In this document: piece by piece, positions 5,974-64,000 of the stretch
Layout of the letters: every line of letters starts with the position of its first letter
How positions within the stretch are numbered: position 1 is the first letter of the stretch
Source: Escherichia phage phAPEC8
Length of the DNA stretch: 64,000 bases
Sequence record: NC_020079.1
Reading direction: 5' to 3' (one strand)
Position numbers and translations under genes: made by a program
Notes under the pieces: generated by a model
What the model was told of the DNA's origin: nothing
The model's database searches: none
Seen by the model: the letters and a program-made list of their open reading frames with translations, nothing else

Positions 5974-6533
5974 ACACCCTCGCTACGTAACTGTTGAAAA
6001 GATTTAGCCATTGCATCTTTTGTTGATAGAATAGGTTTAAAACCTTCGTCAAAAATCATATCGAAGCCCCAATCGATCCCTATATCAGGATCATCCCAAC
6101 GTAAACTTTGTTCACTAGAAGGGTCGTATGGAGTTGTGCATTTGTATTCAAAGATAGCATCCATACTCAAAACTATAAAACCATGAGCCAAACCAGGCGG
6201 AAGCCAAAACTGCGTATGGTGTCGTGCACGAAGAACAACACCGTCCCAAGCACCGTAAGTTGGACTATCTTTACGTAAATCTACAGCGAAATCCAATACT
6301 TCCCCACTTACACAACGAACTAGCTTACCTTGCGGGTTATTTGTTTGAAAGTGCATTCCTCGCAAAACACCGAAGTTTGATTTAGACATGTTATCTTGAA
6401 CGAAAGTTTGTCTACCAATAATATCTTCGTATTTTTGTTCATTATATGTTTCTAGAAAGAAACCACGATCATCTTTATAAACGTCTGGTTTGATAATTAC
6501 CGCACCTTCAATTTTTGTTTTTTCTACTTTCAT
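5967..6533 (-). CDS. rmlC: dTDP-4-dehydrorhamnose 3,5-epimerase
   Basis: Start moved to the internal ATG at 6533 ([26 protein letters not shown]..), giving an ATGA overlap with rmlA; the track ORF extends 40 codons further into rmlA. Confidence 0.8.
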
Positions 6534-7408
6534 TTTCTCTCCGCTAATTTGAGTAGGTATTGCCCGTACTCTGTTTTCTTCAGTGAGTTTCCATGATACA
6601 CCAAAGTCTCTAAAGAAATCCACCCTTTTTTGAAAGCAATTTCTTCCAAGCACGCAATCTTCAATCCTTGACAGTTCTCAATAGTCTGCACGAATTGACC
6701 AGCTTCCATCAGACTGGCGTGTGTTCCTGTGTCAAGCCAAGTAAATCCTCGTCCGAGAACTTCCACTTGTAACTTCCTGTCTTCTAGGTAGCTGCGATTG
6801 ATATCAGTGATCTCCAGTTCTCCACGCGCGGAAGGGGTTACTTCTAATGCACGTTGAATAACAGAGTTATCATAGAAATACAAACCTGTGACAGCATAAT
6901 CTGATTTAGGATTTTCAGGTTTCTCTTCAATAGAAATAGCTTGACGATTACTCCCAAATTCAACCACACCGAATCGTTCAGGATCTTTCACCAAATACCC
7001 GAAAATACAAGCTCCGCCCCAAACATCTACCATCTCACTGGCGTTAATCAGTAGTTTACCAAAGCTTTGTCCGAAGAATAGGTTGTCACCTAAAATAAGA
7101 GCAACAGAGTCTTCTCCGATAAAATCTTTACCTATGATGAAAGCTTCCGCAAGACCTCGTGGCTCGGATTGGATTGCGTAAGTGAGTTTTATCCCAAACA
7201 TAGACCCATCTCCGAGAAGATACTCAAAGTCTTCCTGATCACCTGGTGTGGTGATGATTAAAATATCCTTAATGTCAGCCAACATCAATACCGATAAAGG
7301 GTAGTAGATCATGGGTTTGTCATACACAGGGAGCAATTGCTTGCTCACACTGCGTGTTACCGGATGAAGGCGGGTTCCACTTCCTCCCGCCAAAATAATA
7401 CCTTTCAT
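6530..7408 (-). CDS. rmlA: glucose-1-phosphate thymidylyltransferase
   Basis: [19 protein letters not shown]-terminal nucleotidyltransferase signature; 292 aa. Confidence 0.9.
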
Positions 7409-7416
7409 AACCCTCC

Positions 7417-8409
7417 TTAAATTTTCTCACTCCACCATTGAGGGTTGTTTAAGTACCATTCAATCGTTGAGTAGAGATCTTGTTCAAATGTAGAGTTTGC
7501 ACTCCAGCCCAGTTCAGACTCTATCTTAGAAGGATTGATTTCATAACGCAAGTCATGTCCTTTACGATCTTCAACAAAAGTTATCAAGTTGGAAGAAGGG
7601 TAGGTTACTGCTTCTGGATGTACAGTATCCATATAGTCACAAACCATATAGATGATCTCCATATTGGTTTTGGGATTACGTGTTCCAACATTATACGTTT
7701 GACCTGGTTCTCCACCTGTTGCCACTTGAAGAATAGCTCGCGCATGATCCTCAACAAAAAGCCAGTCTCGCACCTGGTCGCCTTTACCATACACCGGAAT
7801 CTCTTTATTCGTCAAGATACTTGTGATGATTTTTGGGATCAGCTTTTCTGGATGTTGATAAGGCCCAAAGTTATTGGAGCAGTTGGTTATCACAACAGGC
7901 AAATCGTAGGTGCGGTGCCAAGCTTTCACAAGATGGTCAGATGCTGCCTTAGACGCACTGTACGGGCTTGAAGGGGCATAAGCTGTCTCTTCGGTAAAGG
8001 GAACGCCAGAGTCTGCCATATCGCCGTACACTTCGTCTGTGGAGACGTGTACGAACATCTTCAGTTTATTTTTTGGGAGGAGCCTTGCAGCTTCCAATAA
8101 ATTGTATGTACCGATAATATTGGAGTCGATGAAAACTCGTGGATTCTTGATAGAATTATCCACATGACTTTCTGCCGCTAAGTGAATGATGAAGTCAGGA
8201 TTGCACTCTACTACTAAACTTTTGACCTGGGTTTCGTTTGCCAAATCTGTCATGCTTAGTTTAACGTGAGTGATATCGCCTACATTCTCAATATCTGCTG
8301 CATAGCCCATCTTATCAACGACAAAAACTTCGTTATTAGGATCTTGACAAAGAGAGCGCACCACGGCACTCCCAATAAAACCAAGACCACCTGTTACCAG
8401 ATAGCGCAT
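7417..8409 (-). CDS. rmlB: dTDP-glucose 4,6-dehydratase
   Basis: [24 protein letters not shown] and YSASK motifs of SDR dehydratases; 330 aa. Confidence 0.9.
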
Positions 8410-19184: not shown

Positions 19185-20063
19185 TTATTTAAGGATTGTT
19201 GCTTTGGTTAAATCTTCCATCAGACCTCGAATCTCATTGAAGCACAGAAGGACTGAAGCTTCAATACTGCCTTCTTCGTCTGCAAAATATTTCGGAAAAC
19301 GTAGTTTAGAAAGTTTAAACTCTTTATCCACTACGAAATCTACAACACCGTCATATTCAAGACCGATTGCAACAACATCTTTACCATCTTCTTTTAGTTC
19401 GACAGCTTTAGACTCGTATAGGGATTCTTTACTCCAAACAACAACGCCCTCGCTATCCTCCATTTTGATATAATTTCCGAGAGTAATACGATCTGCTTCG
19501 TGATTCTCCAGCAATTCACCAAAACCTTTTACAATAGCTTCTTCATGCACACTAAAACCTACCGAAGGGAAAGTCCCCAGAACGGAACGGAGGAAAGAAG
19601 TAATCTCTTCTGCAACCTTTTTACTTCCATTAAGAACATAAAGAAGATTCGTAGTTTTATCCAAGACAACATAGTTAAAGAAATCTTCAGGTTCTGTTTC
19701 AGGCAATAGTGCAAATTCAATATCTTCCTTCATTGCTTTTACTACTTCTTTATCGACATAAAACTCTTTACCTTCGCTCTCCATGTCCTGACGCATTTCT
19801 TCTAGACGTTCATTCAGAATACGTTTAACTTTCTTTTTATCTACCTTCTTCACAGATTGACCTACATTAAGCAGTTCAAGATCTGAAAACTCTTTTACAA
19901 ATTTAGAGTCATCTTCGAAACGAACAAGACCGATAGTGTGTGACTGGGAGCCTTCTGCTGTTACAAATTCCAGAGGAATATCTGTAATGTTGTTAAGGGA
20001 TGCTACAGAAGCATTGTCACCAACAACCATAGGCAGAGCGGATTTAAAAGATTTTACAAACAT
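19185..20063 (-). CDS. RdgC-like recombination-associated protein
   Basis: 292 aa; C-terminal region (KLSKLRF...EASVLLCFNEIRGLMEDL) resembles E. coli RdgC (SLKRLKF...DADFILMTGELAALIQNL). Confidence 0.45.
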   Translation of the reverse strand: MFVKSFKSALPMVVGDNASVASLNNITDIPLEFVTAEGSQSHTIGLVRFEDDSKFVKEFSDLELLNVGQSVKKVDKKKVKRILNERLEEMRQDMESEGKEFYVDKEVVKAMKEDIEFALLPETEPEDFFNYVVLDKTTNLLYVLNGSKKVAEEITSFLRSVLGTFPSVGFSVHEEAIVKGFGELLENHEADRITLGNYIKMEDSEGVVVWSKESLYESKAVELKEDGKDVVAIGLEYDGVVDFVVDKEFKLSKLRFPKYFADEEGSIEASVLLCFNEIRGLMEDLTKATILK

Positions 20064-23408: not shown

Positions 23409-23879
23409 CTAAGCTGGCATGATTAAAAAAGAACTCTCCACTTCAAAATGCCAATCCTCCACAAGCCCTGATTCCCAGTCCTTCTCTTCGTGGAAGGAAC
23501 AGATCCAACGGTACATTCCTGGCGGTGTATTCTCCACATCTTCCGGCAACCCATAATCCAAGGCTGTCTTGCCATTCTCTGTAAAACCAGGGTGGAGATT
23601 AGGAGCTTTCAGTACAGAAACCATACCTCCAACATCCACAGCTACGATCCACTCTGTCATGTATGGGCTGTCATATTGAGGCTCATCAGAACCTACCTCA
23701 ACAGCCTCTGTGCGTAAGATGATAATAGGCTGCTCTGTGATTGGGGCTTTGACAATATAACCGTGGTCCTCAAAAAGATCGATAACCTCGAACTCATCGC
23801 CGTTTTCGACACCATAGCTCTTATTCAAAGAGATAAACTTCGGGTTATCATCATAAGCTTTAGTTACTTTAATTCTCAT
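23409..23879 (-). CDS. hypothetical protein (156 aa)
   Basis: ORF track. Confidence 0.4.
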   Translation of the reverse strand: MRIKVTKAYDDNPKFISLNKSYGVENGDEFEVIDLFEDHGYIVKAPITEQPIIILRTEAVEVGSDEPQYDSPYMTEWIVAVDVGGMVSVLKAPNLHPGFTENGKTALDYGLPEDVENTPPGMYRWICSFHEEKDWESGLVEDWHFEVESSFLIMPA

Positions 23880-24100
23880 TTTCCCTCCTTCACTTTAACC
23901 TCAAATTCTACAGGCTTACCCTCAATGTAAAAACACTGATACTCTGCCTTATCATCCTCATCACGAGGCCAAGTTACCAAGGAGTTATAGCAATCTTCTG
24001 GTGCTTTGAAGATGGTTTTAGTCTCCATAGTAACATTCCCATTAAGTGTTGCCAATACCACCCACCCAGCTACAGGGATCATAGTGCCTCCACTTTCCAC
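23876..24100 (-). CDS. hypothetical protein (74 aa)
   Basis: ORF track; 4-nt overlap with neighbour. Confidence 0.35.
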   Translation of the reverse strand: MESGGTMIPVAGWVVLATLNGNVTMETKTIFKAPEDCYNSLVTWPRDEDDKAEYQCFYIEGKPVEFEVKVKEGK

Positions 24101-24261
24101 GTTTTACCCTTATCAACCAAGGTCTTTGCTACAGCATACTCCTTCCCATTAACAAGGAAATAATAAACTATAAAAGATTTCCCGATTGTTACTGTCTTAG
24201 TAACCTCTACACGTTTAACACCTTGCATGTATTTTGCCTTACCGGAATAGAGTAAAATCAT
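24079..24261 (-). CDS. hypothetical protein (60 aa)
   Basis: ORF track. Confidence 0.3.
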   Translation of the reverse strand: MILLYSGKAKYMQGVKRVEVTKTVTIGKSFIVYYFLVNGKEYAVAKTLVDKGKTWKVEAL

Positions 24262-24539
24262 TTTGCATTCCTCTTGTTGTTGATAACATCCATAGCAGTA
24301 TATGGTTTATTAGTGCCATGATACTCTAGAATCATTGGAGAGCCTTCTTGCACTACTTCAAAAATACCATAAACAGAACTTTCAGCAAATACCATTTGCT
24401 TCGTTCCTTCATCGTTTACAACGAGAGAAAACTTCTTACCTGTCCCGTTGAGGATCTCGTATTTCTTGCCAGCAGTGAATAATCCAGAGTACCACTCACT
24501 ATCTGTTGCTTTTACACACTTCAGGAAAGTCTTGATCAT
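24258..24539 (-). CDS. hypothetical protein (93 aa)
   Basis: ORF track. Confidence 0.35.
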   Translation of the reverse strand: MIKTFLKCVKATDSEWYSGLFTAGKKYEILNGTGKKFSLVVNDEGTKQMVFAESSVYGIFEVVQEGSPMILEYHGTNKPYTAMDVINNKRNAK

Positions 24540-24889
24540 TTCTTTTTGCTCCTCTTCTTAGATTTATCATACAAACCTAACACAGCAGCCTCTTTTGCAC
24601 AAGTAGGGACTGAAGTCATTCCTCTTCGCTTTGCATCGGGCAGGTTGAGCGTCCACCATCCGAACCAGTAGATTTGGTCTTCCGTGAGTGGTTCAGCCAT
24701 TGGATCTGCCTCCTGCTTCTCAAGACGTTGCAACGCTTCTTCAATCTTCTCAATTGGTGTGTCAAAGACGAATGCCTCCGTATCAAACTTATCTTTCTTA
24801 GGAACTGATTTGGCTACTTTGAGAACCTCGTTTTTCGGTTTCTTAGTAACGTTCTTTGGCTTTGATAACTTCTTCGGTGTTTTCGCCAC
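24536..24889 (-). CDS. hypothetical lysine-rich protein (117 aa)
   Basis: ORF track; very basic N- and C-termini. Confidence 0.35.
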   Translation of the reverse strand: MAKTPKKLSKPKNVTKKPKNEVLKVAKSVPKKDKFDTEAFVFDTPIEKIEEALQRLEKQEADPMAEPLTEDQIYWFGWWTLNLPDAKRRGMTSVPTCAKEAAVLGLYDKSKKRSKKK

Positions 24890-27142: not shown

Positions 27143-27217
27143 GGCCCTGTAGCTCAATGGGAGAGCTGTCGGCTCATAACCGATAGGTAGCTGGATCGAA
27201 ACCAGCCAGGGCCACCA
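27143..27217 (+). tRNA. tRNA-Met (anticodon CAT)
   Basis: Hand-folded cloverleaf: acceptor GGCCCTG/CAGGGCC, anticodon loop CTCATAA, encoded CCA; T-loop ATCGAAA. Confidence 0.7.
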
Positions 27218-27219
27218 AC

Positions 27220-27294
27220 GTCTTTATGGTGTAATGGATAGCACAGGAGTCTTCTAAACTCTTAGTCAAGGTTCGATTCCTTGTAAAGACACCA
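27220..27294 (+). tRNA. tRNA-Arg (anticodon TCT)
   Basis: Acceptor GTCTTTA/TAAAGAC, anticodon loop CTTCTAA, T-arm CAAGG-TTCGATT-CCTTG, CCA. Confidence 0.7.
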
Positions 27295-27490
27295 GAACAT
27301 TTTAACATGAATTAGCTCAAGTGATTTGAACCCACTACTGATCATGGTGGCAGAGAATGAGGCAAGTATGTCAGACATTATAAACAAAGGCCACGGTTAC
27401 ATTAGAAGACATAAATGCTCGAAGAGCACCGTTCGTGGAGAACGGGGGTTGGTGGAGTCACCATTCATGGTAAAATGTTTTAAAAAACTA

Positions 27491-27520
27491 TTGACAACTA
27501 ACATTATTTTATGTTAGATT
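27491..27520 (+). promoter_or_regulatory. sigma70-like promoter inside the tRNA operon
   Basis: CTATTGACA, 17-nt spacer, TTAGAT/TAGATT -10; a few nt upstream of tRNA-Ser. Confidence 0.45.
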
Positions 27521-34486: not shown

Positions 34487-34966
34487 ATGGAACTCAATAA
34501 AGATACACTGTGGGAACTCTTCAAAACCTTCGCTGGTTTTAAAGAGAATTCTGAATCCCAACAAGATTCTATACCATCTCAAAAACCTGAAACTCTAGTC
34601 AAACAAAATAAATTTGATGAAGAAAAGATGCAGGTTATTGAGGTCTTGTATTGTCCACCTGAAGAAGACGATCTCCACGGAGAGCGCATGTCTGATTTGG
34701 AAATCAGGAAGATGGTTGACAACTTCAATGAGAATATTACCAACATTAGTGGTAATCTTGGTCACATGAAGAACACCGATAAGTTTTCTCCAATTAAAGC
34801 TTGGGTAAATGAAGTCGATTGTTACATTGGTGACGAACTCGTTGTGGAAGGAACTCCCCTCGTTAAAATCCAATTCAACGACCCTGAATTATATCAAGCT
34901 CGTAAAGACGGCGTTCTTAAAGGTTTGAGTATAGGCGCAATGGGCGTTAAAGTCAAGAAGGACTAA
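34487..34966 (+). CDS. putative head morphogenesis protein (159 aa)
   Basis: Position between portal and scaffold-like genes; no motif recognised. Confidence 0.3.
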   Translation: MELNKDTLWELFKTFAGFKENSESQQDSIPSQKPETLVKQNKFDEEKMQVIEVLYCPPEEDDLHGERMSDLEIRKMVDNFNENITNISGNLGHMKNTDKFSPIKAWVNEVDCYIGDELVVEGTPLVKIQFNDPELYQARKDGVLKGLSIGAMGVKVKKD

Positions 34967-34968
34967 TC

Positions 34969-36084
34969 GTGGCAAATACATATTTAACTAACGTAGACTT
35001 TTCAGGAAAAGCTACGGAAGAGTCACTAGGTGCTCATATTGCTTACACTTTTGATTTTCAAGGTGGAGCGGCATCTGGTTATAATACCCCCCTTTTATTT
35101 AAGTCAGACGGATCTCCAGACATAACTTTTGAAAAGTTAGAAGCTCTCACTAAAATGGGAGAAGATGTTACAGAGTTACGTAAAAGCTATATTCAACAAG
35201 TGATGGATCGCATTTCTGAAAAAGTGCGTGAAAAATTTGAAGCTGGTTGGGATTGGGTTTACGTTATTGATGCTGACTTCGATGCGAACGTTGCAATTTT
35301 CTGTTCAGATAACGGTATGTTCTCTGTTGGCTTTAAAGTTGACGGACTGAATGTTGAAGTTGAAGAGGTTGCTAAACCTGTTGTTCGTGTTACTGATTAT
35401 CAAGTTGTTGATGGTGATGTAATGATCTCCATTGATTTCTTTGAGGACGTTTTAGACGATGCTTTGAGTAATCTCGTTAAGAGTTCCTTGAAACAAAGTC
35501 AAGTTAAAGATTATTTAGTGAAAGCTCACGCTAAAGCTAATACAAACTCTGTGGATGCAGAGGCTAACCCCGCAGGTGATAAATCTGCAAACACAACTGG
35601 AATCAATAAAGGAGAAACCCCTTTGGAAAATATCAACAAAGAAGAATTCCTGAAATCTGCTGAATTCCAAGAACTGATGAAAGCACAGATTGCTGAAGCT
35701 GTAGAAAAAGCAGCAGCAGATGCACGTGCAGCCGCAGAACTTGAAGCACAGGAAAAAATCGCTAAGGCAGAACAGGAAGCAGAAGAACTTCGTAAAGCTG
35801 AACAAGCTCGTATCGAAGAAGAATATACAACTGTTGTTAAATCCTATTCTTTCGTAGAAGAAGACAAAGTTGAAGCTCTCGTTAAATATCTGGTAGACAA
35901 TAAAGATATCGCTGAAACTATCGTCAAAGCATTCGAAAAAGCACGTGCAGAAGTGGACGCAGTTAAGAAAGAATTTGGAACAGAACGTGGTGTTGACGTG
36001 ATCAATACTCAACCTGTAGCTAAATCTTCTTCTGAACTGATTAGTCAGAAAGCTGCTGAACTTAAAAAAGCCCAGAAACAATAA
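34969..36084 (+). CDS. putative scaffolding protein
   Basis: 371 aa; C-terminal half Ala/Glu/Lys-rich and helical (AEAVEKAAADARAAAELEAQEKIAKAEQEAEELRKAEQ); immediately upstream of the decoration and capsid genes. Confidence 0.4.
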   Translation: MANTYLTNVDFSGKATEESLGAHIAYTFDFQGGAASGYNTPLLFKSDGSPDITFEKLEALTKMGEDVTELRKSYIQQVMDRISEKVREKFEAGWDWVYVIDADFDANVAIFCSDNGMFSVGFKVDGLNVEVEEVAKPVVRVTDYQVVDGDVMISIDFFEDVLDDALSNLVKSSLKQSQVKDYLVKAHAKANTNSVDAEANPAGDKSANTTGINKGETPLENINKEEFLKSAEFQELMKAQIAEAVEKAAADARAAAELEAQEKIAKAEQEAEELRKAEQARIEEEYTTVVKSYSFVEEDKVEALVKYLVDNKDIAETIVKAFEKARAEVDAVKKEFGTERGVDVINTQPVAKSSSELISQKAAELKKAQKQ

Positions 36085-36103
36085 TCTTAGGAGATTAAAT
36101 TAA

Positions 36104-36502
36104 ATGGCTAAAGGAATTACTTTATCTAACTCTCGCCAGGAATTCGGACACCTGGTTCTGGGTGGAGTGTTTAGCTCTGACCTTGGACACTGTGTACGTG
36201 AAGTTAACCTGGTTAAAACAGCAACCATGAAAATTGGTTCTATCCTGAAAGCTGACAACACTGAAGCTGCTAAAGCTGAAGCTGCCGATGCTGCTAAAGT
36301 TCTGATTTGGACTGATGCTCTGTTCGGTATTGACGATGTAGCAGTAGGTGACACTTTCACCGCAGTTGTTGGCGTACGTGATCTTACTCTGAACCGCTTT
36401 GCAGTATACTACAAAGATGGCTCCCTGGTAGATGACGCTGGCGTAGCAGCACTGGAAACACATGATCTGAAACTGACCGAAAAAGTCGTTTTCACTTCTT
36501 AA
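36104..36502 (+). CDS. head decoration protein (lambda gpD-like position)
   Basis: 132 aa; strong RBS TAGGAGATTAAATTAA; high-expression codon bias; sits immediately before the major capsid gene. Confidence 0.5.
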   Translation: MAKGITLSNSRQEFGHLVLGGVFSSDLGHCVREVNLVKTATMKIGSILKADNTEAAKAEAADAAKVLIWTDALFGIDDVAVGDTFTAVVGVRDLTLNRFAVYYKDGSLVDDAGVAALETHDLKLTEKVVFTS

Positions 36503-36523
36503 TTTTAATAGGAGATTAATATA

Positions 36524-37525
36524 ATGCCAGCAGTAATTTTAGATCAGGTTGTAGATTTCAGCCCTATGATCGAACTTCAGGATTCCCCTGATACACTGAT
36601 TGCCAGCCTGAATCTGTTCAGTGTTGACTATCATTCAACTACCGCTATTGAAATCGGTAAAGAAAAAGCTGAAGATGCTCTGATCTCCGCTCGTGAGCGT
36701 GGTGGTGAGCGTAACTTCCTGACCATGAAAAATCCAGAACTGAAAGCGTTCCGCATTCCGTTCTTCCCTCTGGATAAAAACATCAAAGCTCAAGATATTC
36801 AATCTTTCCGTAGCTTTGCAATGGCAGGAATCAATGACTCTCTGCGCACAGACGCTGAAGTTGTTAACCGCTATATGTCCCAGATTCTGCGTGACGTAGC
36901 AAAAACCAAAGAGAAAATCTTTGCAGAAGCAGTTATGGGTCGTGCCTATAACGGCGTAGGTGGTGCAGCTAACTCTGCATACAACTGGTATACCGAATGG
37001 GGTGCTACCCAGAAATCTGTTGCTGTAGACTTTGCTTCTACCACTGTTTCTCCAGCAGCCACTATCGAACAAGAAGCTCGTGCTTACATCATCGATACTA
37101 AACAAGATGGCTCTACCGCTACCCGTATCGTAGCTCTGTGTTCTCGTGAATTTTTCGCATCTCTGGTTAACTCTCCGTTTGTTCGCCAGGCGTATCAGTA
37201 TTTCCAGGGAACTCCTAACCTTCTGCGTGACCGCCTTAGCGGTAACATGGATGTTCAGGTGTTCGAATGGAATGGTGTAACTTACATTGAAGATATCCAC
37301 GGTAACATCCCTGCTGGTGAAGCATATGTTCTGCCTATGGGTATCGAAGGTATGTTCCAGGCGCACTACGCTCCTGCGGATACTCCAGAACTGGCTAACA
37401 CCCAGGCTCGTGAACTGTATACCTTCATGATCAGCCAGCACCGCACTATTCAGCTTCAGTCTGAATTCTCGCTGCTCGCAGTTAACACCCGTCCAGAACT
37501 GGTAGTTAAACTGACTACGGCTTAA
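36524..37525 (+). CDS. major capsid protein (lambda gpE-like)
   Basis: 333 aa; C-terminal ANTQARELYTF.. resembles lambda E (GNTQARGLRTYG..); strong RBS, codon bias, terminator downstream. Confidence 0.7.
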   Translation: MPAVILDQVVDFSPMIELQDSPDTLIASLNLFSVDYHSTTAIEIGKEKAEDALISARERGGERNFLTMKNPELKAFRIPFFPLDKNIKAQDIQSFRSFAMAGINDSLRTDAEVVNRYMSQILRDVAKTKEKIFAEAVMGRAYNGVGGAANSAYNWYTEWGATQKSVAVDFASTTVSPAATIEQEARAYIIDTKQDGSTATRIVALCSREFFASLVNSPFVRQAYQYFQGTPNLLRDRLSGNMDVQVFEWNGVTYIEDIHGNIPAGEAYVLPMGIEGMFQAHYAPADTPELANTQARELYTFMISQHRTIQLQSEFSLLAVNTRPELVVKLTTA

Positions 37526-37546
37526 TAGAACTCTGTTAATATTAGA

Positions 37547-37575
37547 GGCTCGTCCGTGATGGGCGAGCCTTTTCT
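37547..37575 (+). terminator. rho-independent terminator after the major capsid gene
   Basis: GGCTCG...CGAGCC hairpin followed by TTTTCTGTTT. Confidence 0.5.
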
Positions 37576-37609
37576 GTTTACAATAAGAGTTTACAATGAG
37601 GAGATTGAT

Positions 37610-37954
37610 ATGTCAAACCCAGAATTGAAACGTTACTTTAGTTATCACGAAATGATTCGTGATTTCGAATCGCTTTCACCACTGATTGATGCTGATAAAA
37701 CATTAGTATCTGCGCCACCAATGTCTTTCTATCTGAAAGATGGTCGTATTGCATTAGGTGGAAACTTCATTCACTTCCTCACGCGTTTGAGAGAAGAAAC
37801 AGGTATTCTTGTGCATCCTTTTGCAAGTGAAGAACACATGGGTTACTATCTTGTGAGTTACGAAGACTATGCACCTGTAAAAATCAAAGAAGAAGTTTTA
37901 AAAGTAGAAGCGGTAGACACTCCAGCTAAAAAACGTTCCCTTCGTAAAAAATAA
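37610..37954 (+). CDS. hypothetical head-tail joining region protein
   Basis: Start moved to the ATG at 37610 (MSNPELKRY..) with GAGGAG RBS; the track start lies inside the terminator hairpin. Confidence 0.35.
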   Translation: MSNPELKRYFSYHEMIRDFESLSPLIDADKTLVSAPPMSFYLKDGRIALGGNFIHFLTRLREETGILVHPFASEEHMGYYLVSYEDYAPVKIKEEVLKVEAVDTPAKKRSLRKK

Positions 37955-37963
37955 GGTGGGCTT

Positions 37964-38512
37964 ATGCTGAATGCGGTAGAGTTGGCACCACTGATCCGAA
38001 TTCTTGTTTATAACCCTTCTCAAGAAGTATTGCCAGATGCAATGCTGATTCAGATCATCCAAACTTGGATTGATATTATAGGGAATGAAGATAAGGATAA
38101 GTGTGCAGTATTGTGGAACAGCTTGATTTCTGTTTTAGAGTATTTATGGAACAACGATGTTCTTAACAACAGTACTCAAACAGGGGGAGCTATGTCCCGC
38201 AGAGAAAAGATGGGTGAAGTCGAAGTTGAAGTTAAATTTAACAACGGTCAAATCACTTATAAGTCTCCGTGGGAAGATATCTATCATAACTATTTAAATG
38301 GTCTTATGGTCATTCCTGGGTGCACGGCAGGACGAGGAGCAACCAGTAAAGTTCTTATTGGTGGTGTTGATGCTCGTGAGATTGATCGAGTAAACAGCGA
38401 TCCTAACTCTGTAAATGGTCTTGGTAATGTTGCAAGTGTTGATCGTAATACACGCAACGTTAATTATTTGCGAAATTACGGACCTGTTTCTTTTTATCGT
38501 AGGGACAAATAA
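37964..38512 (+). CDS. hypothetical structural protein (182 aa)
   Basis: ORF track; within the head-to-tail module. Confidence 0.35.
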   Translation: MLNAVELAPLIRILVYNPSQEVLPDAMLIQIIQTWIDIIGNEDKDKCAVLWNSLISVLEYLWNNDVLNNSTQTGGAMSRREKMGEVEVEVKFNNGQITYKSPWEDIYHNYLNGLMVIPGCTAGRGATSKVLIGGVDAREIDRVNSDPNSVNGLGNVASVDRNTRNVNYLRNYGPVSFYRRDK

Positions 38513-39000
38513 TGGAAAGTGAGATCTTACCAGGGGACGATACAGATTGGGAAACCATTATCAAAAAGATGATGGACCTTGAACAAGTTCAAATCGAAGC
38601 TGGTTTTTTAACAAACAGAAGGCATCCTGAATCAGATCTCACTATTCCTGCAATAGCAGCTATTCAACAATATGGTAATGAAACAAATAACATACCTGCT
38701 CGCCCTTTTATAACAGATGGTGCTGTTATCTCACAGAACAATATCGCTAAAAAGATGAAGCAGGTGTTTGCAAATTACTTAATGCATAATGTTGGGTTAG
38801 CTGTTTTTGAGCCTATAGCGAGAGCCTCTAGAGAAGGAATAGCTCAAGCGATTGCAATGCAACGTTATCGTCCTTTATCTCCTGTGACAATTAAGATACG
38901 ACAAGATAAAGGCAACTATTCTAATCATATCTTAATAGATACGGCACACATGATAAATGCAATCGAAACAAAAATCACAAAAAGCAAGTCTAAAAAATAA
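38512..39000 (+). CDS. hypothetical structural protein (162 aa)
   Basis: ORF track; start overlaps the previous stop. Confidence 0.35.
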   Translation: MESEILPGDDTDWETIIKKMMDLEQVQIEAGFLTNRRHPESDLTIPAIAAIQQYGNETNNIPARPFITDGAVISQNNIAKKMKQVFANYLMHNVGLAVFEPIARASREGIAQAIAMQRYRPLSPVTIKIRQDKGNYSNHILIDTAHMINAIETKITKSKSKK

Positions 39001-39045
39001 CTTGCATAAACTTTGTTTTTGATGTATACTAAAAAGGAGATACAA

Positions 39046-39462
39046 GTGTTACTAGATCAATTTACTCTCCTTGATCTAACTGAATACCAAGGTCGTAGAC
39101 GAGTCTACAAAGAGGCCGTTGGTTCAGTTATTGCTAACTTAGAAAGTAGTGTAGAATATGAACCATTTACTATTGAAGCTGCAAGCTTACAACCGATATC
39201 TGGTAAAACACTGAATGCACTACCTGAAGGTTACAGATCTAAGGCTCAATATAGTTTCTGGACTAAAACAGAAATGAAGGGGTTACAACAAGGAACAGAA
39301 CAGTTATCAGATCAGATATTGATAGATGGTAAATGGTATTCTGTTTATTCCCTTAAAGATTGGACCAGAACATCTTTCTTAGTCCATCATCACTGTGTTG
39401 CAATATTAGATGATCAAAACAACTCCTGGTCTTATGGAACAGAAGGAGGAAATTTTGGCTAA
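39046..39462 (+). CDS. hypothetical structural protein
   Basis: Start moved to the GTG at 39046 with AAGGAGA RBS. Confidence 0.35.
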   Translation: MLLDQFTLLDLTEYQGRRRVYKEAVGSVIANLESSVEYEPFTIEAASLQPISGKTLNALPEGYRSKAQYSFWTKTEMKGLQQGTEQLSDQILIDGKWYSVYSLKDWTRTSFLVHHHCVAILDDQNNSWSYGTEGGNFG

Positions 39463-40093
39463 TATTTACCAACAAATAGAAGCATACGAAAATGCCATCT
39501 ACTTAAATATAGGTGGCTTCCTTCAAGAATTAGTGGGGTTGCCAGTCTATGTTATGGATAAGCCATTCATTAAACCGGATACTCCTTACCTAGCACTACG
39601 TATTATCACTTCCAGCGATTCTGGAGGTTGGTCTTACCGAAGCTCTATTCAAAATGATATGTATTCCTACGAGATGGATAATACCTACGAGATTGAACTT
39701 GTAGCCTATCGTGGAAGACCTACCACTTTGATGAGCTATGTTCTGGCTGCTCTCCGTGGTGCAGAGGAATTAAAATACAAACATCTCTATTCTAAAGGTC
39801 TTGGTTTTTTAGGAGCCTCTAATATAGCTCAAGCCAATACAATTGTAGACGGAGATAAGACTGAATTAAGAGCGCGTATGGTTATGACGTTCAACACTCG
39901 TATGAGTATTGAAGATATTGCTACTACACCAATAGAAGCAATCAACATGCACATCCGTTCATTCAGAGATAGTTACAATGATCCTATCCCTTTAGATTTA
40001 ATTCTAAACAGGGTTTATGCAATTACTTTGGTTCCAGGCGAATACTCGTCAGTTAATCAAAATGGATCATTATTTAACAACCCTACCGAATAA
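39434..40093 (+). CDS. hypothetical neck or tail-completion protein
   Basis: Start uncertain (ATG 39434, or TTG 39455 after AAGGAGG); precedes the sheath gene. Confidence 0.35.
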   Translation: MEQKEEILANIYQQIEAYENAIYLNIGGFLQELVGLPVYVMDKPFIKPDTPYLALRIITSSDSGGWSYRSSIQNDMYSYEMDNTYEIELVAYRGRPTTLMSYVLAALRGAEELKYKHLYSKGLGFLGASNIAQANTIVDGDKTELRARMVMTFNTRMSIEDIATTPIEAINMHIRSFRDSYNDPIPLDLILNRVYAITLVPGEYSSVNQNGSLFNNPTE

Positions 40094-40127
40094 ACTCATT
40101 GGAATTAAGTTTCTAACAGGAGCATAA

Positions 40128-41501
40128 ATGGCAACTTTTCGTGAAAAGGTAGCAACCGTAACTTTACTGTATGGTGCTACATCAATTCGTGAAACCCAGT
40201 TCGATATTCCCCTGATCCTTACAGGTCAGAACGTAACTGGCGAAGCGATTCAATATTACTCTTCTTCCGATGCACTTTTGGAAGCAGGTTATGGATTAAA
40301 TGATCCAGCGTATATTATGGCAGTCAAACTGTTTAACGGTTTGTTCCCACCAGATCAAGTCATGGTTGGTAAGCGTGAAGTTACAAACTTTACTCTAACT
40401 CCAATCGTAGAAGATAGTGCAACTTACACAATTACCATCAAAAATGGTACCAAGAAAAAAGAATTTAAATTCATTGCTGATGACACTGCAACTGCACAAG
40501 AGATTGTAGTTGGTCTGACTGAAATGATCAATGCAGATCTTGTTTATGGCCCACTGTTTACAGTAGCTAACAACGGTGCTGCAATGACTTTCACTCCAGT
40601 AGAAGGTAAGTTTGGTTCTATTGACAGCACAGGTTTCACTCAAGAAACTGTCTATGCTAATGCTATTACGGAAGATATTGCTGCTCTGCATGATATTGAT
40701 AGTAGCTGGTTCTGGACCCTTTCAGATTCCCATGAAACAGAAGATGTTCTAGCTTTGGCTGCATGGGTAGAAGAGAATGATAAAGTTTACTTCTTCTCTA
40801 GCTCTGAACCTGGAATTAAAACGAAAGCAGAAGATAACGTTCTGGAACGACTGAATGACCTCGGTTATAATAACACTTGCTTTGCTTTGTGGATGACCGA
40901 TGCAGATTCTGTATTCCCAGAAGCAGCAGTTGTTGGTGCAATCTGTTCTCGTCAACCTGGTTTAACTACTCTTCACGGTAAAACACTGGTAGGCGTAGAG
41001 ATCGAGAAACTGGATCAGACTTCGGAAAACAATATTGTTCAACAGAACGGTAACATCTATCGTAAAGAGCATGGAACTCTGTTCTATCGTGACGGATTGA
41101 TGGTTAGCGGTTTCTTTGTTGACTATGTTGTTCATGCTTTGTGGTTTAAAGCTCGCACAGAAGAATCACTGTTTACACTGTTTAAACAACAGTCTATGCT
41201 GGGTGGTGGTGTTCGTGCTACTTCAAATGGTCTGGCTTTGATTCGACAAGCTGTTCTGGCTAACCCGATCCAAGTAGGTATCCTCAACGGTTCCATCGCT
41301 AATGAAGTTGTTACTTCTGAAGAGACTGGTTTGCGTGTCGATCTGAAACCTATCGTTTATATTCCTTCTCGTGCCGATATGACTGATGCGCAAATCAATG
41401 CTCGTCTGGTCGATGGGATGAAGATTGAATATGTTTACGCTGGCTTCTTCCATTACGTTAAAGTTCAGGTTAACGTCCTGACTAACCGTACTGCAAACTA
41501 A
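40128..41501 (+). CDS. tail sheath protein
   Basis: 457 aa; high-expression codon bias; followed by tube, chaperone and tape-measure genes in canonical contractile-tail order. Confidence 0.55.
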   Translation: MATFREKVATVTLLYGATSIRETQFDIPLILTGQNVTGEAIQYYSSSDALLEAGYGLNDPAYIMAVKLFNGLFPPDQVMVGKREVTNFTLTPIVEDSATYTITIKNGTKKKEFKFIADDTATAQEIVVGLTEMINADLVYGPLFTVANNGAAMTFTPVEGKFGSIDSTGFTQETVYANAITEDIAALHDIDSSWFWTLSDSHETEDVLALAAWVEENDKVYFFSSSEPGIKTKAEDNVLERLNDLGYNNTCFALWMTDADSVFPEAAVVGAICSRQPGLTTLHGKTLVGVEIEKLDQTSENNIVQQNGNIYRKEHGTLFYRDGLMVSGFFVDYVVHALWFKARTEESLFTLFKQQSMLGGGVRATSNGLALIRQAVLANPIQVGILNGSIANEVVTSEETGLRVDLKPIVYIPSRADMTDAQINARLVDGMKIEYVYAGFFHYVKVQVNVLTNRTAN

Positions 41502-41547: not shown

Positions 41548-42027
41548 ATGGATAAAATGCTTACTGGCGTAATGGCCTACGACCCATCTCAAGTTATCCT
41601 TTCATTAGGTGGTTGGGAACCGTGGGGTTTTGCGGCTGATACTAAAATCGTTATTGCTAAATCTAACGATATTATCAACCCTTATTCAGGGACTGATGGC
41701 GACGTTTCACTAGCTTTGAGTCGTAACCGTTTAGGAACACTCACAATGTCTTTGCAACGCACATCTCCAGCTAACGAAGTACTTGCAACATATGCACAAA
41801 CAATGTATTCTACTCGTCAAGTAGCGTTCAGTGTTTACTTGGAAGACCCACGTGGCTATTACATTAGCACGATTGGATGGATTCAAAGTCAGCCTGAAGA
41901 TACTATTGGCGAAATGATTACAGAGAACCAATGGGTTATTGGTCTTAAAGATGCAAGCCTTCTGCGTAATGAAGTTGGTGTAGGTTTGAGCACCCTTAAC
42001 TCAATCTCTGCTCTGACAATTCAATAA
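41548..42027 (+). CDS. tail tube protein
   Basis: 159 aa gene immediately after the sheath gene; terminator hairpin downstream. Confidence 0.5.
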   Translation: MDKMLTGVMAYDPSQVILSLGGWEPWGFAADTKIVIAKSNDIINPYSGTDGDVSLALSRNRLGTLTMSLQRTSPANEVLATYAQTMYSTRQVAFSVYLEDPRGYYISTIGWIQSQPEDTIGEMITENQWVIGLKDASLLRNEVGVGLSTLNSISALTIQ

Positions 42028-42034
42028 TAAATAA

Positions 42035-42056
42035 AGGGCAGAAATGCCCTTTTTAT
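42035..42056 (+). terminator. rho-independent terminator after the tube gene
   Basis: AGGGCA-GAAA-TGCCCT hairpin followed by TTTTT. Confidence 0.55.
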
Positions 42057-61137: not shown

Positions 61138-64000
61138 ATGGCAACATTCCCAACATATCCAGCAACGTCTCTCGAACAGGGCGTAGACCTGGTTATTTTC
61201 TCATCTAACCAACTCCATGATGTTATTAATGGAAGTGCTACAGAGAGTATTGAAACAGAATCAGGGTTGATACCAACCCTGAGAAAAGCCCTTGTTGACA
61301 ACTTTTTCTTTAAAAGTCCATTAGATTGGGCGCAAGGCACAAACGAAACAGTTTTTAACCAACTTCGTTATTTCCAGAACGGGGTGTTGAGTGGTTATTA
61401 CTATGCGCCTAACGCTACACTGGTAAACCCAATTCCTATGCAAGGGACTCCAGTAGGAGATAACAACTGGGTATTGTGGGGACTGAAGACAGAACAACTA
61501 GCAACAGAAGTCACCCCTTGGGTATATTCTGGTGCAACTGGTTATGAAACAGTAATCAGTCCTCCCTACATCTTTGATAGTGCTATTGTTACGATCAATG
61601 GTGTTATTCAGGTTCTGGGAGAAGCTTTCCGCATAGAAGATAGTAAAATCATCTTATCTGAACCTTTGGGACACGATCCTGCAACAGGACTGCCAAACAA
61701 ACTTTTTGCCTATATTGGTAAAATCGTAGCTTCCGCAGATACAGATCCTAACTTAGAAAACCGTCTTGTCAGTTTAGAAACAAAAACTGAAGAACTGACA
61801 GAAAGCATGGATAAAGTACCTTTACAAACTATTGCTCGTAAATACGGTTTGTTGGATGATGAAGTAGCTTACGCAACAGCGGGTCAATCGTTAACAGGGA
61901 TTAAAGCTCTGTATGATCCAGTAGCACAATCTTCCTACACATTGCCTCCTAACATCACAGGGACTTTAACATCCTTGTCTGTTTCTGGAGTAATGACTTA
62001 TTCTGGCGGATCTGTAGATCTTTCTGCATTGGCTGTTGAACGTGGACAGTTTGTTCATTTGCCTACAAGCTTTGGTAATAACGTAACTCTGACAGCTAAA
62101 AATCAGACGATTGGACGTGGTGCTGGTCGTTATCGTTGGGCTGGGAGTTTACCAAAAAGTATTTTGGCCTCAGATACATTGGAGACAAGCGGTGGATTAG
62201 GTCCAAATGCATGGGTTCTGACCAATACAGAAGGACTGTTAACCCCTCGTGGTGGAACATACAACGATTTATTCGATGTTGTCTACTTATCAGAATTTGC
62301 TAACAACACAACAACATATACCACACCAGAAGCAGCTTTCCAAGCGGCACTGTTAGCAGCAAAAGCTTCGAAAAGCAAGATTCTCGATGCTTACGGTTGC
62401 GATATGACTTTCACGACAAGCTCTTTTGATATTCAAGGTATCACTTTGCGTGGGGGTGTGTTCCGTGGTCAACGCGACTATCGTGTGCAAAATGCTACAG
62501 TAGAAGGCACAACTTTCCGTAACTCTCGTGTTATGTATTGGGGTGGTGCTGTGCGCATGTTCGATTGTTTGTGGGACGGTGCTCCTCGCGCAGGTCAAGT
62601 TGGTAGCTTGGTATTCCAAGGCAACCCAATATCAGGTACTTTTGAAATTGATAACTGTACTTTTAAAAACGGGTTGTATGGCATCCTTCAACAAGGAACA
62701 GGGGAACCAGTAACACGTGGTGTCTTCCGTAACCTTACCTTCATGGACATGCAAGGTGATGCAATAGAACTGAACGTCATCAATAAACATTATGACGATG
62801 GTTGTGTGATTGAGAATATTTACCTGTCTAATATCGATGGGACTAACGCTCCTATTCCTCTGTCCAACTGGGGTATCGGTATCGGTGTAGCTGGTAAAGG
62901 ACCATATGGTTACGGAATCCCTGATGATCAATATTGCAAGAATATTACAATTCGTAACGTTTTTGCAAAACGTTGTCGTCAGATTGTCCACGTAGAAGTT
63001 GGTCGTAATATCTCTATCGAAAACATTCATGGCGATCCAGACCAGACCGTATCTGTTGGGACAGGTTTGGCAACTGGCGCAGTTGTAATGTATGGAAGTA
63101 AAGATTTTACGATTGACGGTGTTTACGGAGAGCCTAAAACAGACGGTAGCACACTTGCAAGTAATATCCGTATGATTTATTTGGAGTGGGGAACTAACGC
63201 AGTTCTGGACGAAGAGGGTAATCCGGTAGTTCCGGCACAGGGTAGACCTTCAAACCCATGCTTTAACTATTCTGTTCGTAATATTCACACCAAAACTGGG
63301 CGTGTTTTTGCAGGAGTTTCCGCTGGGCCAGGTTATGAAAACAGAGTTAGCTTTGAAAATATTCGTTGCGCTGCATTGCAGTTATTCGGTATAGCTTCTT
63401 GGCTTTCAATGTCTAACATCACCTGTAATATCTTCGATTGTGTTGGTCAACCTGAATCTGGTCCAGGGACATTTTATGATGGATTCTTCCGTAGAGAAAA
63501 ATCTGTTCTTGAAATGGTTAACGTGAACTGTTACCCAGATGGCAAGACGATGGTTACTGGTCGTCCACAGTGGAGCCGTTGCCGTTACTCGGATATTCAT
63601 CGTGTCAATTGTAATGTTGAAGCTAATATGTATACCAATATCGCAGGTGGTATTGGAGCTATTGTAGGGACAACGGGCAAAGTTTATTACTTAGAGCCTA
63701 ATCCTAGTCGAAACATTGATGGAATGCATTTCCCAACAGGGAAAGAGTTTGACAAAGGTGATATGATAGTCAAGGCGGATAATACGTTCTTCCTTGTAAC
63801 AACAAGTGGGGCATATATTCCAGATATCCCAGCTTTCGGTATTCGAGCTACACAGGCAGGAGATACCTTCCTGACACAGAACTTGACTCCTAACGGGACA
63901 GCAACAAATGCTTCTTGGTTGTATCATTACCCTCTGTCAGCAGGGACACGTATCCGTATTCCTGGCGCTGGTGTAGGTGGAGCAGATTTGGACACAGTTA
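61138..64000 (+). CDS. tailspike with parallel beta-helix (pectate-lyase-like depolymerase fold), 3' end beyond the window
   Basis: Hand-translated from the ATG at 61138 with no stop to 64000; repeated beta-helix-type segments (NITIRNVF, NISIENIHG, VRNIHT); absent from the ORF track because it lacks a stop. Confidence 0.5.
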   Translation, partial: MATFPTYPATSLEQGVDLVIFSSNQLHDVINGSATESIETESGLIPTLRKALVDNFFFKSPLDWAQGTNETVFNQLRYFQNGVLSGYYYAPNATLVNPIPMQGTPVGDNNWVLWGLKTEQLATEVTPWVYSGATGYETVISPPYIFDSAIVTINGVIQVLGEAFRIEDSKIILSEPLGHDPATGLPNKLFAYIGKIVASADTDPNLENRLVSLETKTEELTESMDKVPLQTIARKYGLLDDEVAYATAGQSLTGIKALYDPVAQSSYTLPPNITGTLTSLSVSGVMTYSGGSVDLSALAVERGQFVHLPTSFGNNVTLTAKNQTIGRGAGRYRWAGSLPKSILASDTLETSGGLGPNAWVLTNTEGLLTPRGGTYNDLFDVVYLSEFANNTTTYTTPEAAFQAALLAAKASKSKILDAYGCDMTFTTSSFDIQGITLRGGVFRGQRDYRVQNATVEGTTFRNSRVMYWGGAVRMFDCLWDGAPRAGQVGSLVFQGNPISGTFEIDNCTFKNGLYGILQQGTGEPVTRGVFRNLTFMDMQGDAIELNVINKHYDDGCVIENIYLSNIDGTNAPIPLSNWGIGIGVAGKGPYGYGIPDDQYCKNITIRNVFAKRCRQIVHVEVGRNISIENIHGDPDQTVSVGTGLATGAVVMYGSKDFTIDGVYGEPKTDGSTLASNIRMIYLEWGTNAVLDEEGNPVVPAQGRPSNPCFNYSVRNIHTKTGRVFAGVSAGPGYENRVSFENIRCAALQLFGIASWLSMSNITCNIFDCVGQPESGPGTFYDGFFRREKSVLEMVNVNCYPDGKTMVTGRPQWSRCRYSDIHRVNCNVEANMYTNIAGGIGAIVGTTGKVYYLEPNPSRNIDGMHFPTGKEFDKGDMIVKADNTFFLVTTSGAYIPDIPAFGIRATQAGDTFLTQNLTPNGTATNASWLYHYPLSAGTRIRIPGAGVGGADLDTV

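Follow-up and report, generated by a model that had tools for sequence, protein, structure and literature searches.

Host-preferred codon usage in the decoration, capsid and tail sheath genes of Escherichia phage phAPEC8

What sets the codon usage of a few late genes of Escherichia phage phAPEC8 apart from that of their neighbors? We address this question in a stretch of 64,000 nucleotides from sequence record NC_020079.1 (the window), in which a first-pass annotation had singled out positions 36104-37525 and 40128-41501 as islands of unusual codon usage. These coordinates are exact boundaries of open reading frames (ORFs) and comprise three plus-strand genes, namely the head decoration gene (36104-36502; phrog_2680), the gene for the major capsid (major head) protein (36524-37525; Pfam Phage_cap_E, phrog_29) and the tail sheath gene (40128-41501; phrog_205, DUF3383). 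Gene identities are based on the annotation of the close relative EF1-1 and on PHROG and Pfam scans. In the following, the three genes are referred to as the islands and the other 62 ORFs of the window as the rest. Over 5.6 kb around the islands, identity is 99.7% with Escherichia phage vB_EcoM_UP17 and 99% or higher with 60 phage records, nearly all from phAPEC8-like (Phapecoctavirus) E. coli phages, which are myoviruses of about 150 kb with a G + C (GC) content of 39%.

The three genes are the most host-adapted ORFs of the window. A codon adaptation index (CAI) with weights derived from 31 E. coli K-12 genes (ribosomal proteins, rpoA, tufA for EF-Tu and fusA for EF-G) places the capsid (0.671), decoration (0.652) and sheath (0.525) genes first, second and third of 65 ORFs, the median being 0.356. 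We compared these values with a null model in which each protein sequence stays unchanged and synonymous codons are sampled from the rest of the window. None of 2000 draws reaches the observed CAI of any of the three genes (z = 14.1 for capsid, 7.6 for decoration and 8.5 for sheath), and the codon adaptation suspected in the first-pass annotation is thus borne out. The effective number of codons (Nc) discriminates weakly, as AT-biased small genes score low too.

Single codons display the same pattern. The shift among leucine codons is highly significant (per-amino-acid chi-square test, p = 8e-29): CTG provides 11 of 14 leucine codons in the decoration gene (79%), 18 of 24 in the capsid gene (75%) and 19 of 39 in the sheath gene (49%) compared to 12% in the other 62 ORFs, and TTA provides 5 of 77 (6%) in the islands compared to 27% elsewhere. 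AGA (0/36) and ATA (0/55) are absent from all three genes and reach 22 and 20%, respectively, elsewhere. The genes between the two islands (38512-40093) are rich in TTA (6/8, 7/16, and 8/22), AGA and ATA, which agrees with the preference for these codons described earlier for neighboring genes. The heavy use of CTG, CGT, GGT and ACC that had been ascribed to the islands holds overall, with the exceptions that GGT accounts for only 4 of 11 codons in the decoration gene and ACC for only 6 of 42 in the sheath gene, where ACT is used instead.

Do the islands reflect host-optimal codons or a high GC content? They had also been described as more GC-rich, and this is correct for total GC (0.454 in decoration, 0.467 in capsid and 0.414 in sheath vs. 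0.389 in the window). Much of the excess resides at the first and second codon positions (GC1 and GC2) because the island proteins are rich in alanine, valine and glycine. At the third position (GC3), only the capsid gene is an outlier (z = 5.6), while decoration (z = 1.9) and sheath (z = 1.6) miss significance. Hence, the per-gene GC3 comparison that had been suggested as a check would on its own miss two of the three genes, and since unrelated genes combine higher GC3 with low CAI, we rejected GC3 as a discriminating statistic. A second null model, which holds the amino acid fixed and also whether each third base is G/C or A/T, leaves the top three unchanged (z = 9.6 for capsid, 6.6 for sheath and 5.2 for decoration). 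Furthermore, the change in the share of each codon between islands and rest correlates with the difference between highly expressed E. coli genes and the rest (r = 0.77), and the coefficient of GC3 is negative after the host-usage term enters the regression. Optimal codons ending in A or T rise in the islands (GAA, AAA, GCT, TCT, ACT, GGT, CGT, and GTT) and poor codons ending in G or C fall (GTG, GGG, ACG, AGG, and CGG). A principal component analysis (PCA) of relative synonymous codon usage that is blind to the host places capsid, sheath and decoration at one extreme of the first component (PC1), the loadings of which correlate with the logarithm of the CAI weights, ln w (rho = -0.65), and not with GC3 (rho = -0.01). 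The island shift is one of host codon optimality and not a GC island.

The bias also respects gene boundaries. In a 40-codon profile it starts and stops where genes do, and it is even across the length of the sheath gene. The sole exception is the scaffold-like gene upstream of the decoration gene (34969-36084, plus strand; phrog_2970, annotated in relatives as putative scaffold or head maturation protease), which follows an XkdF-type protease gene (34487-34966). Overall, the scaffold gene ranks fourth in CAI (0.523, z = 3.8), composed of an ordinary part (codons 1-80, CAI 0.31) and a biased part (codons 81-370, CAI 0.60). The codon island is really wider than its proposed start at 36104 and begins near 35209, inside the scaffold gene. 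An internal translation start might account for the low-CAI 5' part, yet no convincing Shine-Dalgarno sequence was found before Met63 or Met79. Downstream of the sheath gene, the probable tail tube gene (41548-42027, plus strand; phrog_280 virion structural protein, identified by its position after the sheath gene) exhibits a mild bias (CAI 0.41, z = 3.0) with CGT at 5 of 6 codons and neither AGA nor ATA.

The starts of the decoration and capsid genes have two features of their own. Their first approximately 40 codons are less optimal (0.47-0.48 vs. 0.6-0.8), which resembles a translational "ramp." In addition, their initiation contexts are near-identical (TAGGAGATTAAATTAAATG at 36080-36103 and TAGGAGATTAATATAATG at 36500-36523, plus strand), and both leaders provide a moderate Shine-Dalgarno sequence within A/T-rich sequence.

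Is the bias maintained over longer evolutionary distances? We compared late-module orthologs in Eryne (a Justusliebigvirus) and in the Klebsiella phages KP13-26 and FBKp34. The capsid, decoration and sheath proteins of FBKp34 are just 48-50% identical to those of the window, and the three relatives span 48-91%. In all three, the same orthologs are highest in CAI, and CAI values correlate with those of the window (Spearman coefficients of 0.77 for Eryne, 0.79 for KP13-26, and 0.68 for FBKp34). The same codon families shift as well; in FBKp34, CGT reaches 83% in the island genes vs. 10% in other late genes, and the non-island late genes use 72% AGA. The proportion of synonymous differences (pS) relative to Eryne is 0.37 for decoration and 0.49 for capsid, with a typical value of about 0.67 for other late genes. 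Most late genes lie near saturation (pS of about 0.65-0.75). CAI and pS are negatively correlated in the three relatives (Spearman coefficients of -0.55, -0.32, which is not significant, and -0.50). The pattern recurs despite near-saturated synonymous sites, and its conservation down to 48-50% protein identity argues for maintained selection over recent transfer. This conservation is a direct observation, as are the bias, its direction and its independence of GC3. In an Akashi-type test, optimal codons are enriched at residues conserved in the four phages (Mantel-Haenszel odds ratio 1.61, z = 3.1), also in the sheath gene alone (odds ratio 1.86, z = 2.9), suggesting that accuracy as well as speed contributes to selection.

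Taken together, translational selection very likely explains the islands: genes for high-copy virion proteins would be pulled toward codons read by abundant host tRNAs, and phage tRNAs would partly cover the rest. The first-pass annotation had proposed such selection, which is supported by the codon-by-codon correlation, the null model with fixed GC3 class, the host-blind PCA and the orthologs. It is also supported by an index in the style of the tRNA adaptation index (tAI) that uses assumed E. coli tRNA gene copy numbers and that ranks the decoration and capsid genes first and second and the scaffold gene third. The capsid shell, its decoration and the sheath are the parts of the virion with the highest copy number, followed by scaffold and tube; per particle, we estimate hundreds of capsid and decoration subunits and about a hundred or more for sheath and tube. 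Synonymous mutations to host-abundant codons would be favored in proportion to expression. Selection would thereby act toward CTG, CGT, GGT, ACC/ACT, ATC, TTC, AAC, CAG, GAA and AAA, which are served by abundant E. coli tRNAs, and away from AGA, AGG, ATA, TTA, CTA, GGA, GGG and ACA, which depend on scarce ones. The likely gain would be faster and more accurate elongation, with less ribosome occupancy and fewer missense errors in the short late phase. In low-copy genes, selection may be too weak against AT-biased mutation, and these genes would sit at the AT-rich mutational equilibrium of a genome with 39% GC. Their surplus of A-ending codons that are rare in the host would in part be served by the phage tRNA set. 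Mass spectrometry identified the capsid, decoration, sheath and tube proteins as dominant in virions of the relative rV5 (PMC3606486).

Several points weigh against translational selection as the full explanation. The comparison with host tRNA abundance, which had been proposed as a check, puts decoration and capsid on top and the sheath gene only ninth on this cruder gene-copy index. The Shine-Dalgarno strength of the three genes (pairing energy with the anti-Shine-Dalgarno sequence) is median, with ranks 32, 33, and 40 of 65, and we therefore rejected stronger ribosome-binding sites as independent evidence for high expression. For the capsid gene alone, the conserved-site test detected no enrichment of optimal codons. 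Tyrosine, aspartate, histidine and cysteine codons do not shift significantly in the islands; for aspartate, histidine and cysteine this fits the weak preference of the host, the counts for histidine and cysteine being small. Proline is the sole amino acid with a strong host preference that the islands never take up. Host-optimal CCG, which accounts for 67% of proline codons in highly expressed E. coli genes, is found at only 3 of 27 positions, and in all four lineages CCG provides 11-15% and CCA together with CCT 85-89% of island-gene proline. Moreover, the ranking covers the 65 ORFs of a 64-kb window, i.e., about 40% of the genome, and the high expression of the island genes is deduced from gene identity. 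A fitness benefit and active phage tRNAs are likewise inferences.

How do the phage tRNAs fit into this picture? The window contains an array of 11 tRNA genes (27143-29148, plus strand; ARAGORN) that consists of CAT (probable Ile2), Arg-TCT, Ser-GCT, Tyr-GTA, Asn-GTT, Thr-TGT, Gly-TCC, Gln-TTG, Pro-TGG, Ile-GAT and a second CAT tRNA. As 11 tRNAs have been published for Phapecoctavirus genomes of 150-152 kb (PMC10698182), the array probably is the full set. The tRNA at 27143-27217 (plus strand, anticodon CAT) is called "Met" by ARAGORN; its acceptor stem GGCCCTG/CAGGGCC includes the pairs C4-G69 and C5-G68, and it resembles the annotated tRNA-Ile2 (CAT) of FBKp34. We take both pairs to be determinants of the lysidine-modified tRNA-Ile2, and the tRNA is probably such an isoacceptor reading ATA. 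In the second CAT tRNA (29070-29148), A1 and C72 are mismatched, the D region is enlarged and position 73 appears to be U.

According to the first-pass annotation, the phage tRNAs serve the AT-rich remainder of the genes, and the direction of this claim is correct. When 59 codons are ranked by the excess of the phage rest over average E. coli, codons cognate to phage tRNAs rank high (CAA first, ACA third, GGA seventh, AGA 10th, CCA 14th, and ATA 17th). The cognate A-ending set (AGA, ACA, GGA, CAA, CCA, ATA, and TCA) makes up 16% of the relevant codons in the islands vs. 32% in the rest (Fisher p = 6e-11). Its share is 29% among early genes and 34% among late genes outside the islands, compared to 11% in average and 4% in highly expressed E. 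coli genes. The copy-number index of the rest gains about 14% when the phage tRNAs are included, and that of the islands gains 6-11%. The claim fails for TTA, the commonest leucine codon outside the islands, which lacks a phage tRNA here and has one in relatives. TTA, CCT and TGT are all strongly over-used without a cognate phage tRNA, and the Tyr-GTA, Asn-GTT, Ile-GAT and Ser-GCT tRNAs are not matched to host-rare codons. With these exceptions, the phage tRNAs are cognate to codons used more often by the phage than by the host.

A different role for the array is possible, although we consider it the less probable one: instead of compensating for codon usage, phage tRNAs might substitute for host tRNAs that are destroyed or run low in infected cells, for example through anticodon nucleases or host shut-off. 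Close relative EF1-1 has an annotated RNA ligase and a phosphoesterase in the region equivalent to the early genes of the window. These are candidates for tRNA-repair enzymes, an assumption that we draw from T4. The four tRNAs unrelated to host-rare codons (Tyr-GTA, Asn-GTT, Ile-GAT, and Ser-GCT) and the missing tRNA for TTA, the most over-used leucine codon, would fit replacement as well. Replacement has been proposed in general terms (van den Berg et al., 2023; PMC10264068) and specifically in a Shigella myovirus (Ross and Doore, 2025; PMC12482277). However, among the 11-12 tRNAs, six or seven have U34 (or lysidine) and read precisely the A-ending codons that the phage over-uses relative to E. 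coli. The set spans only about 10 amino acids and therefore cannot sustain translation alone. Replacement and compensation are not mutually exclusive.

A tentative and rather doubtful extension combines both observations into a division of labor, in which the late genes of highest copy number are tuned to the host and avoid codons of the phage tRNAs, the low-copy late genes use these codons most (34%) and proline is read mainly by the phage tRNA-Pro. A tRNA-Pro(TGG) is present in all three lineages whose tRNA region was examined (all but Eryne). If such a division of labor were true, raising the output of the major structural proteins would not be what the phage tRNAs are for, in conflict with recent proposals on other myoviruses, and the proline held at CCA/CCT would imply phage tRNA-Pro(UGG) as the main proline decoder even for the capsid.

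Could the synonymous pattern be selected at the level of mRNA or DNA rather than by way of tRNA supply? Causes of this kind would be the folding or stability of the mRNA, avoidance of sites targeted by nucleases or restriction enzymes and transcription-coupled mutation bias in the most transcribed genes, and we regard them as improbable. The pattern is limited to genes that are probably the most transcribed, and strong hairpins flank the units, which makes control at the mRNA level plausible. The tests also do not split tRNA supply from mRNA stability that is linked to codon optimality. On the other hand, the shift matches the usage in E. coli ribosomal protein, EF-Tu and EF-G genes codon by codon (the r of 0.77 given above) and agrees with the host tRNA-gene-copy index, and optimal codons at conserved residues are specific to selection for accuracy. 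Transcription-coupled bias predicts a strand-asymmetric skew and not CGT over CGA/CGG or CTG over CTC.

The hairpins themselves are located at likely transcript ends. One with a U-run lies directly 3' of the capsid stop codon (37544-37572, plus strand) and resembles a terminator, with a 13-pair stem of -27.3 kcal/mol (z = -5.6). A second, bidirectional terminator-like hairpin follows the tube gene (42033-42052). The positions of both match annotated terminators in FBKp34. The hairpin behind the capsid gene probably ends or stabilizes the scaffold-decoration-capsid mRNA, and the positions would fit islands that form the 3' ends of abundant transcription units. The loop at 37544-37572 holds the first possible starts of the next ORF (GTG at 37556 and ATG at 37559), the PHROG match of which begins at residue 19. 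A low-scoring RyhB match at 29235-29289 (29.4 bits vs. a gathering score of 55) overlaps a terminator hairpin and was taken as a chance hit.

Horizontal acquisition of the islands from a GC-richer phage or host, not yet ameliorated to 39% GC, would be consistent with the higher total GC (0.41-0.47 vs. 0.39), with the GC3 of the capsid gene and with the pS values of decoration and capsid, which lie below those of their neighbors as recombination could also cause; we reject it as very improbable because the shift is not toward G/C (many favored codons end in A/T and many avoided ones in G/C), survives conditioning on GC3 class with PC1 uncorrelated to GC3, includes two genes that are not GC3 outliers, recurs in distant orthologs with near-saturated synonymous sites and occurs in two separate blocks whose edges match the highest-copy genes, and because genes that are genuinely rich in GC3 (6530-8409, 23409-24889, and 62632-63030) have a low or ordinary CAI.

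These latter genes are a separate observation. Raised GC3 (z = 4.3-6.0) together with ordinary or low CAI is found on the minus strand at 6530-7408, 7417-8409, 23409-23879, 24536-24889 and 62632-63030. They are genuine compositional outliers, for which a bacterial origin may be considered. By position, 6530-7408 and 7417-8409 appear to correspond to dTDP-sugar genes of EF1-1 (glucose-1-phosphate thymidylyltransferase and nucleotide-sugar epimerase). The ORF at 62632-63030 has no Pfam match and an odd composition (GC1 0.34, GC3 0.51) and may not be a real gene.

Long antisense ORFs of up to 268 amino acids are found on the minus strand inside the scaffold, decoration, capsid and sheath genes (35515-36081, 36122-36463, 36635-37441, 40395-40691, 40749-40955, and 41223-41453), and their frame is codon-aligned with the sense gene. 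TTA, CTA and TCA together amount to 1.3% of island codons vs. 4.0% elsewhere. The antisense ORFs are long because the islands avoid these codons, which read as stops on the opposite strand, and we rejected them as genes and regard them as a by-product of this avoidance. Among early genes, the most host-adapted one is an RdgC-like (PF04381) recombination-associated gene (19185-20063, minus strand; CAI 0.47, z = 2.9), in which codons of phage tRNAs make up 12% of the relevant codons. This codon usage suggests that the product is an abundant early DNA-binding protein.

The tRNA array contains traces of further genes. A probable Ser-TGA gene that was missed by ARAGORN is located at 27527-27618 (plus strand); with 37 bits it stays under the gathering score of the Rfam tRNA-Sec model. 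Its anticodon arm (GGTCTTGAAAACC), T arm and acceptor 3' end can be aligned with tRNA-Ser(TGA) of KP13-26, and it is probably either a 12th tRNA or a decaying copy whose D arm is aberrant. Two cloverleaf-like folds between intact tRNA genes (28018-28100, z = -2.9, and 28984-29068, z = -3.6; plus strand) have good acceptor and T arms and aberrant anticodon arms and look like tRNA remnants. In the regions examined, KP13-26 has 24 and FBKp34 at least 17 tRNAs, and the array of phAPEC8 may be shrinking.

The codon signal of the islands is real and very strong, was read correctly in the first-pass annotation and is of a kind already known. It matters little beyond the phAPEC8 genome, where it provides a clean example of selection acting against a mutational bias that opposes host-optimal codons, and shows that GC3 by itself detects such islands poorly. 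From the codon signature, an Escherichia-like host is confirmed and the virion genes of highest copy number stand out without annotation. When therapeutic phages of the genus Phapecoctavirus are engineered or recoded, the capsid, decoration and sheath genes are expected to be sensitive to synonymous changes.

How does this pattern compare to known systems? A literature search for Phapecoctavirus and codon usage did not find a gene-level codon analysis for the genus. Sharp and colleagues reportedly made the same point on host-preferred codon bias in phages in earlier work on T7 and T4. Such bias was demonstrated for lambda and T7 and across 74 phages (Lucks, Nelson, Kudla and Plotkin, 2008; PMC2266997). 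As in phAPEC8, CAI in those phages is raised in head and tail genes relative to non-structural genes and was read as translational selection. In phAPEC8, however, the bias is limited to about five of about 30 late genes, namely those whose products are present in most copies per virion, and the baseplate, fiber, portal and terminase genes do not exceed the genome average. phAPEC8 also differs in having a tRNA set of its own.

Codon compensation by phage-encoded tRNAs was reportedly described by Bailly-Bechet, Vergassola and Rocha in 2007 (cited in PMC10698182). The same argument was made for AGA, ACA and CCA in rV5 (PMC3606486). In phAPEC8, Arg-TCT, Thr-TGT, Pro-TGG, Gly-TCC, Gln-TTG and the probable Ile2-CAT would likewise read codons common in the phage but scarce in E. 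coli. In contrast, the late genes that are likely most expressed rely least on phage tRNAs here (16% vs. 32-34%), TTA, CCT and TGT are over-used without a cognate tRNA and the tRNA sets of relatives are larger (at least 17 in the part of FBKp34 examined and 24 in KP13-26).

The islands finally resemble highly expressed genes of enterobacteria, in which Sharp and Li reportedly found codon bias together with a reduced synonymous rate in 1987; a test of accuracy on codon bias is attributed to Akashi (1994). They differ in that the virus they belong to has 39% GC and a mutational background that works against many host-optimal codons, and their adaptation is incomplete, with CAI values of 0.53-0.67 and proline not moved to CCG. 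The optimal codon set, the lower synonymous divergence and the enrichment of optimal codons at conserved residues are the same in both.

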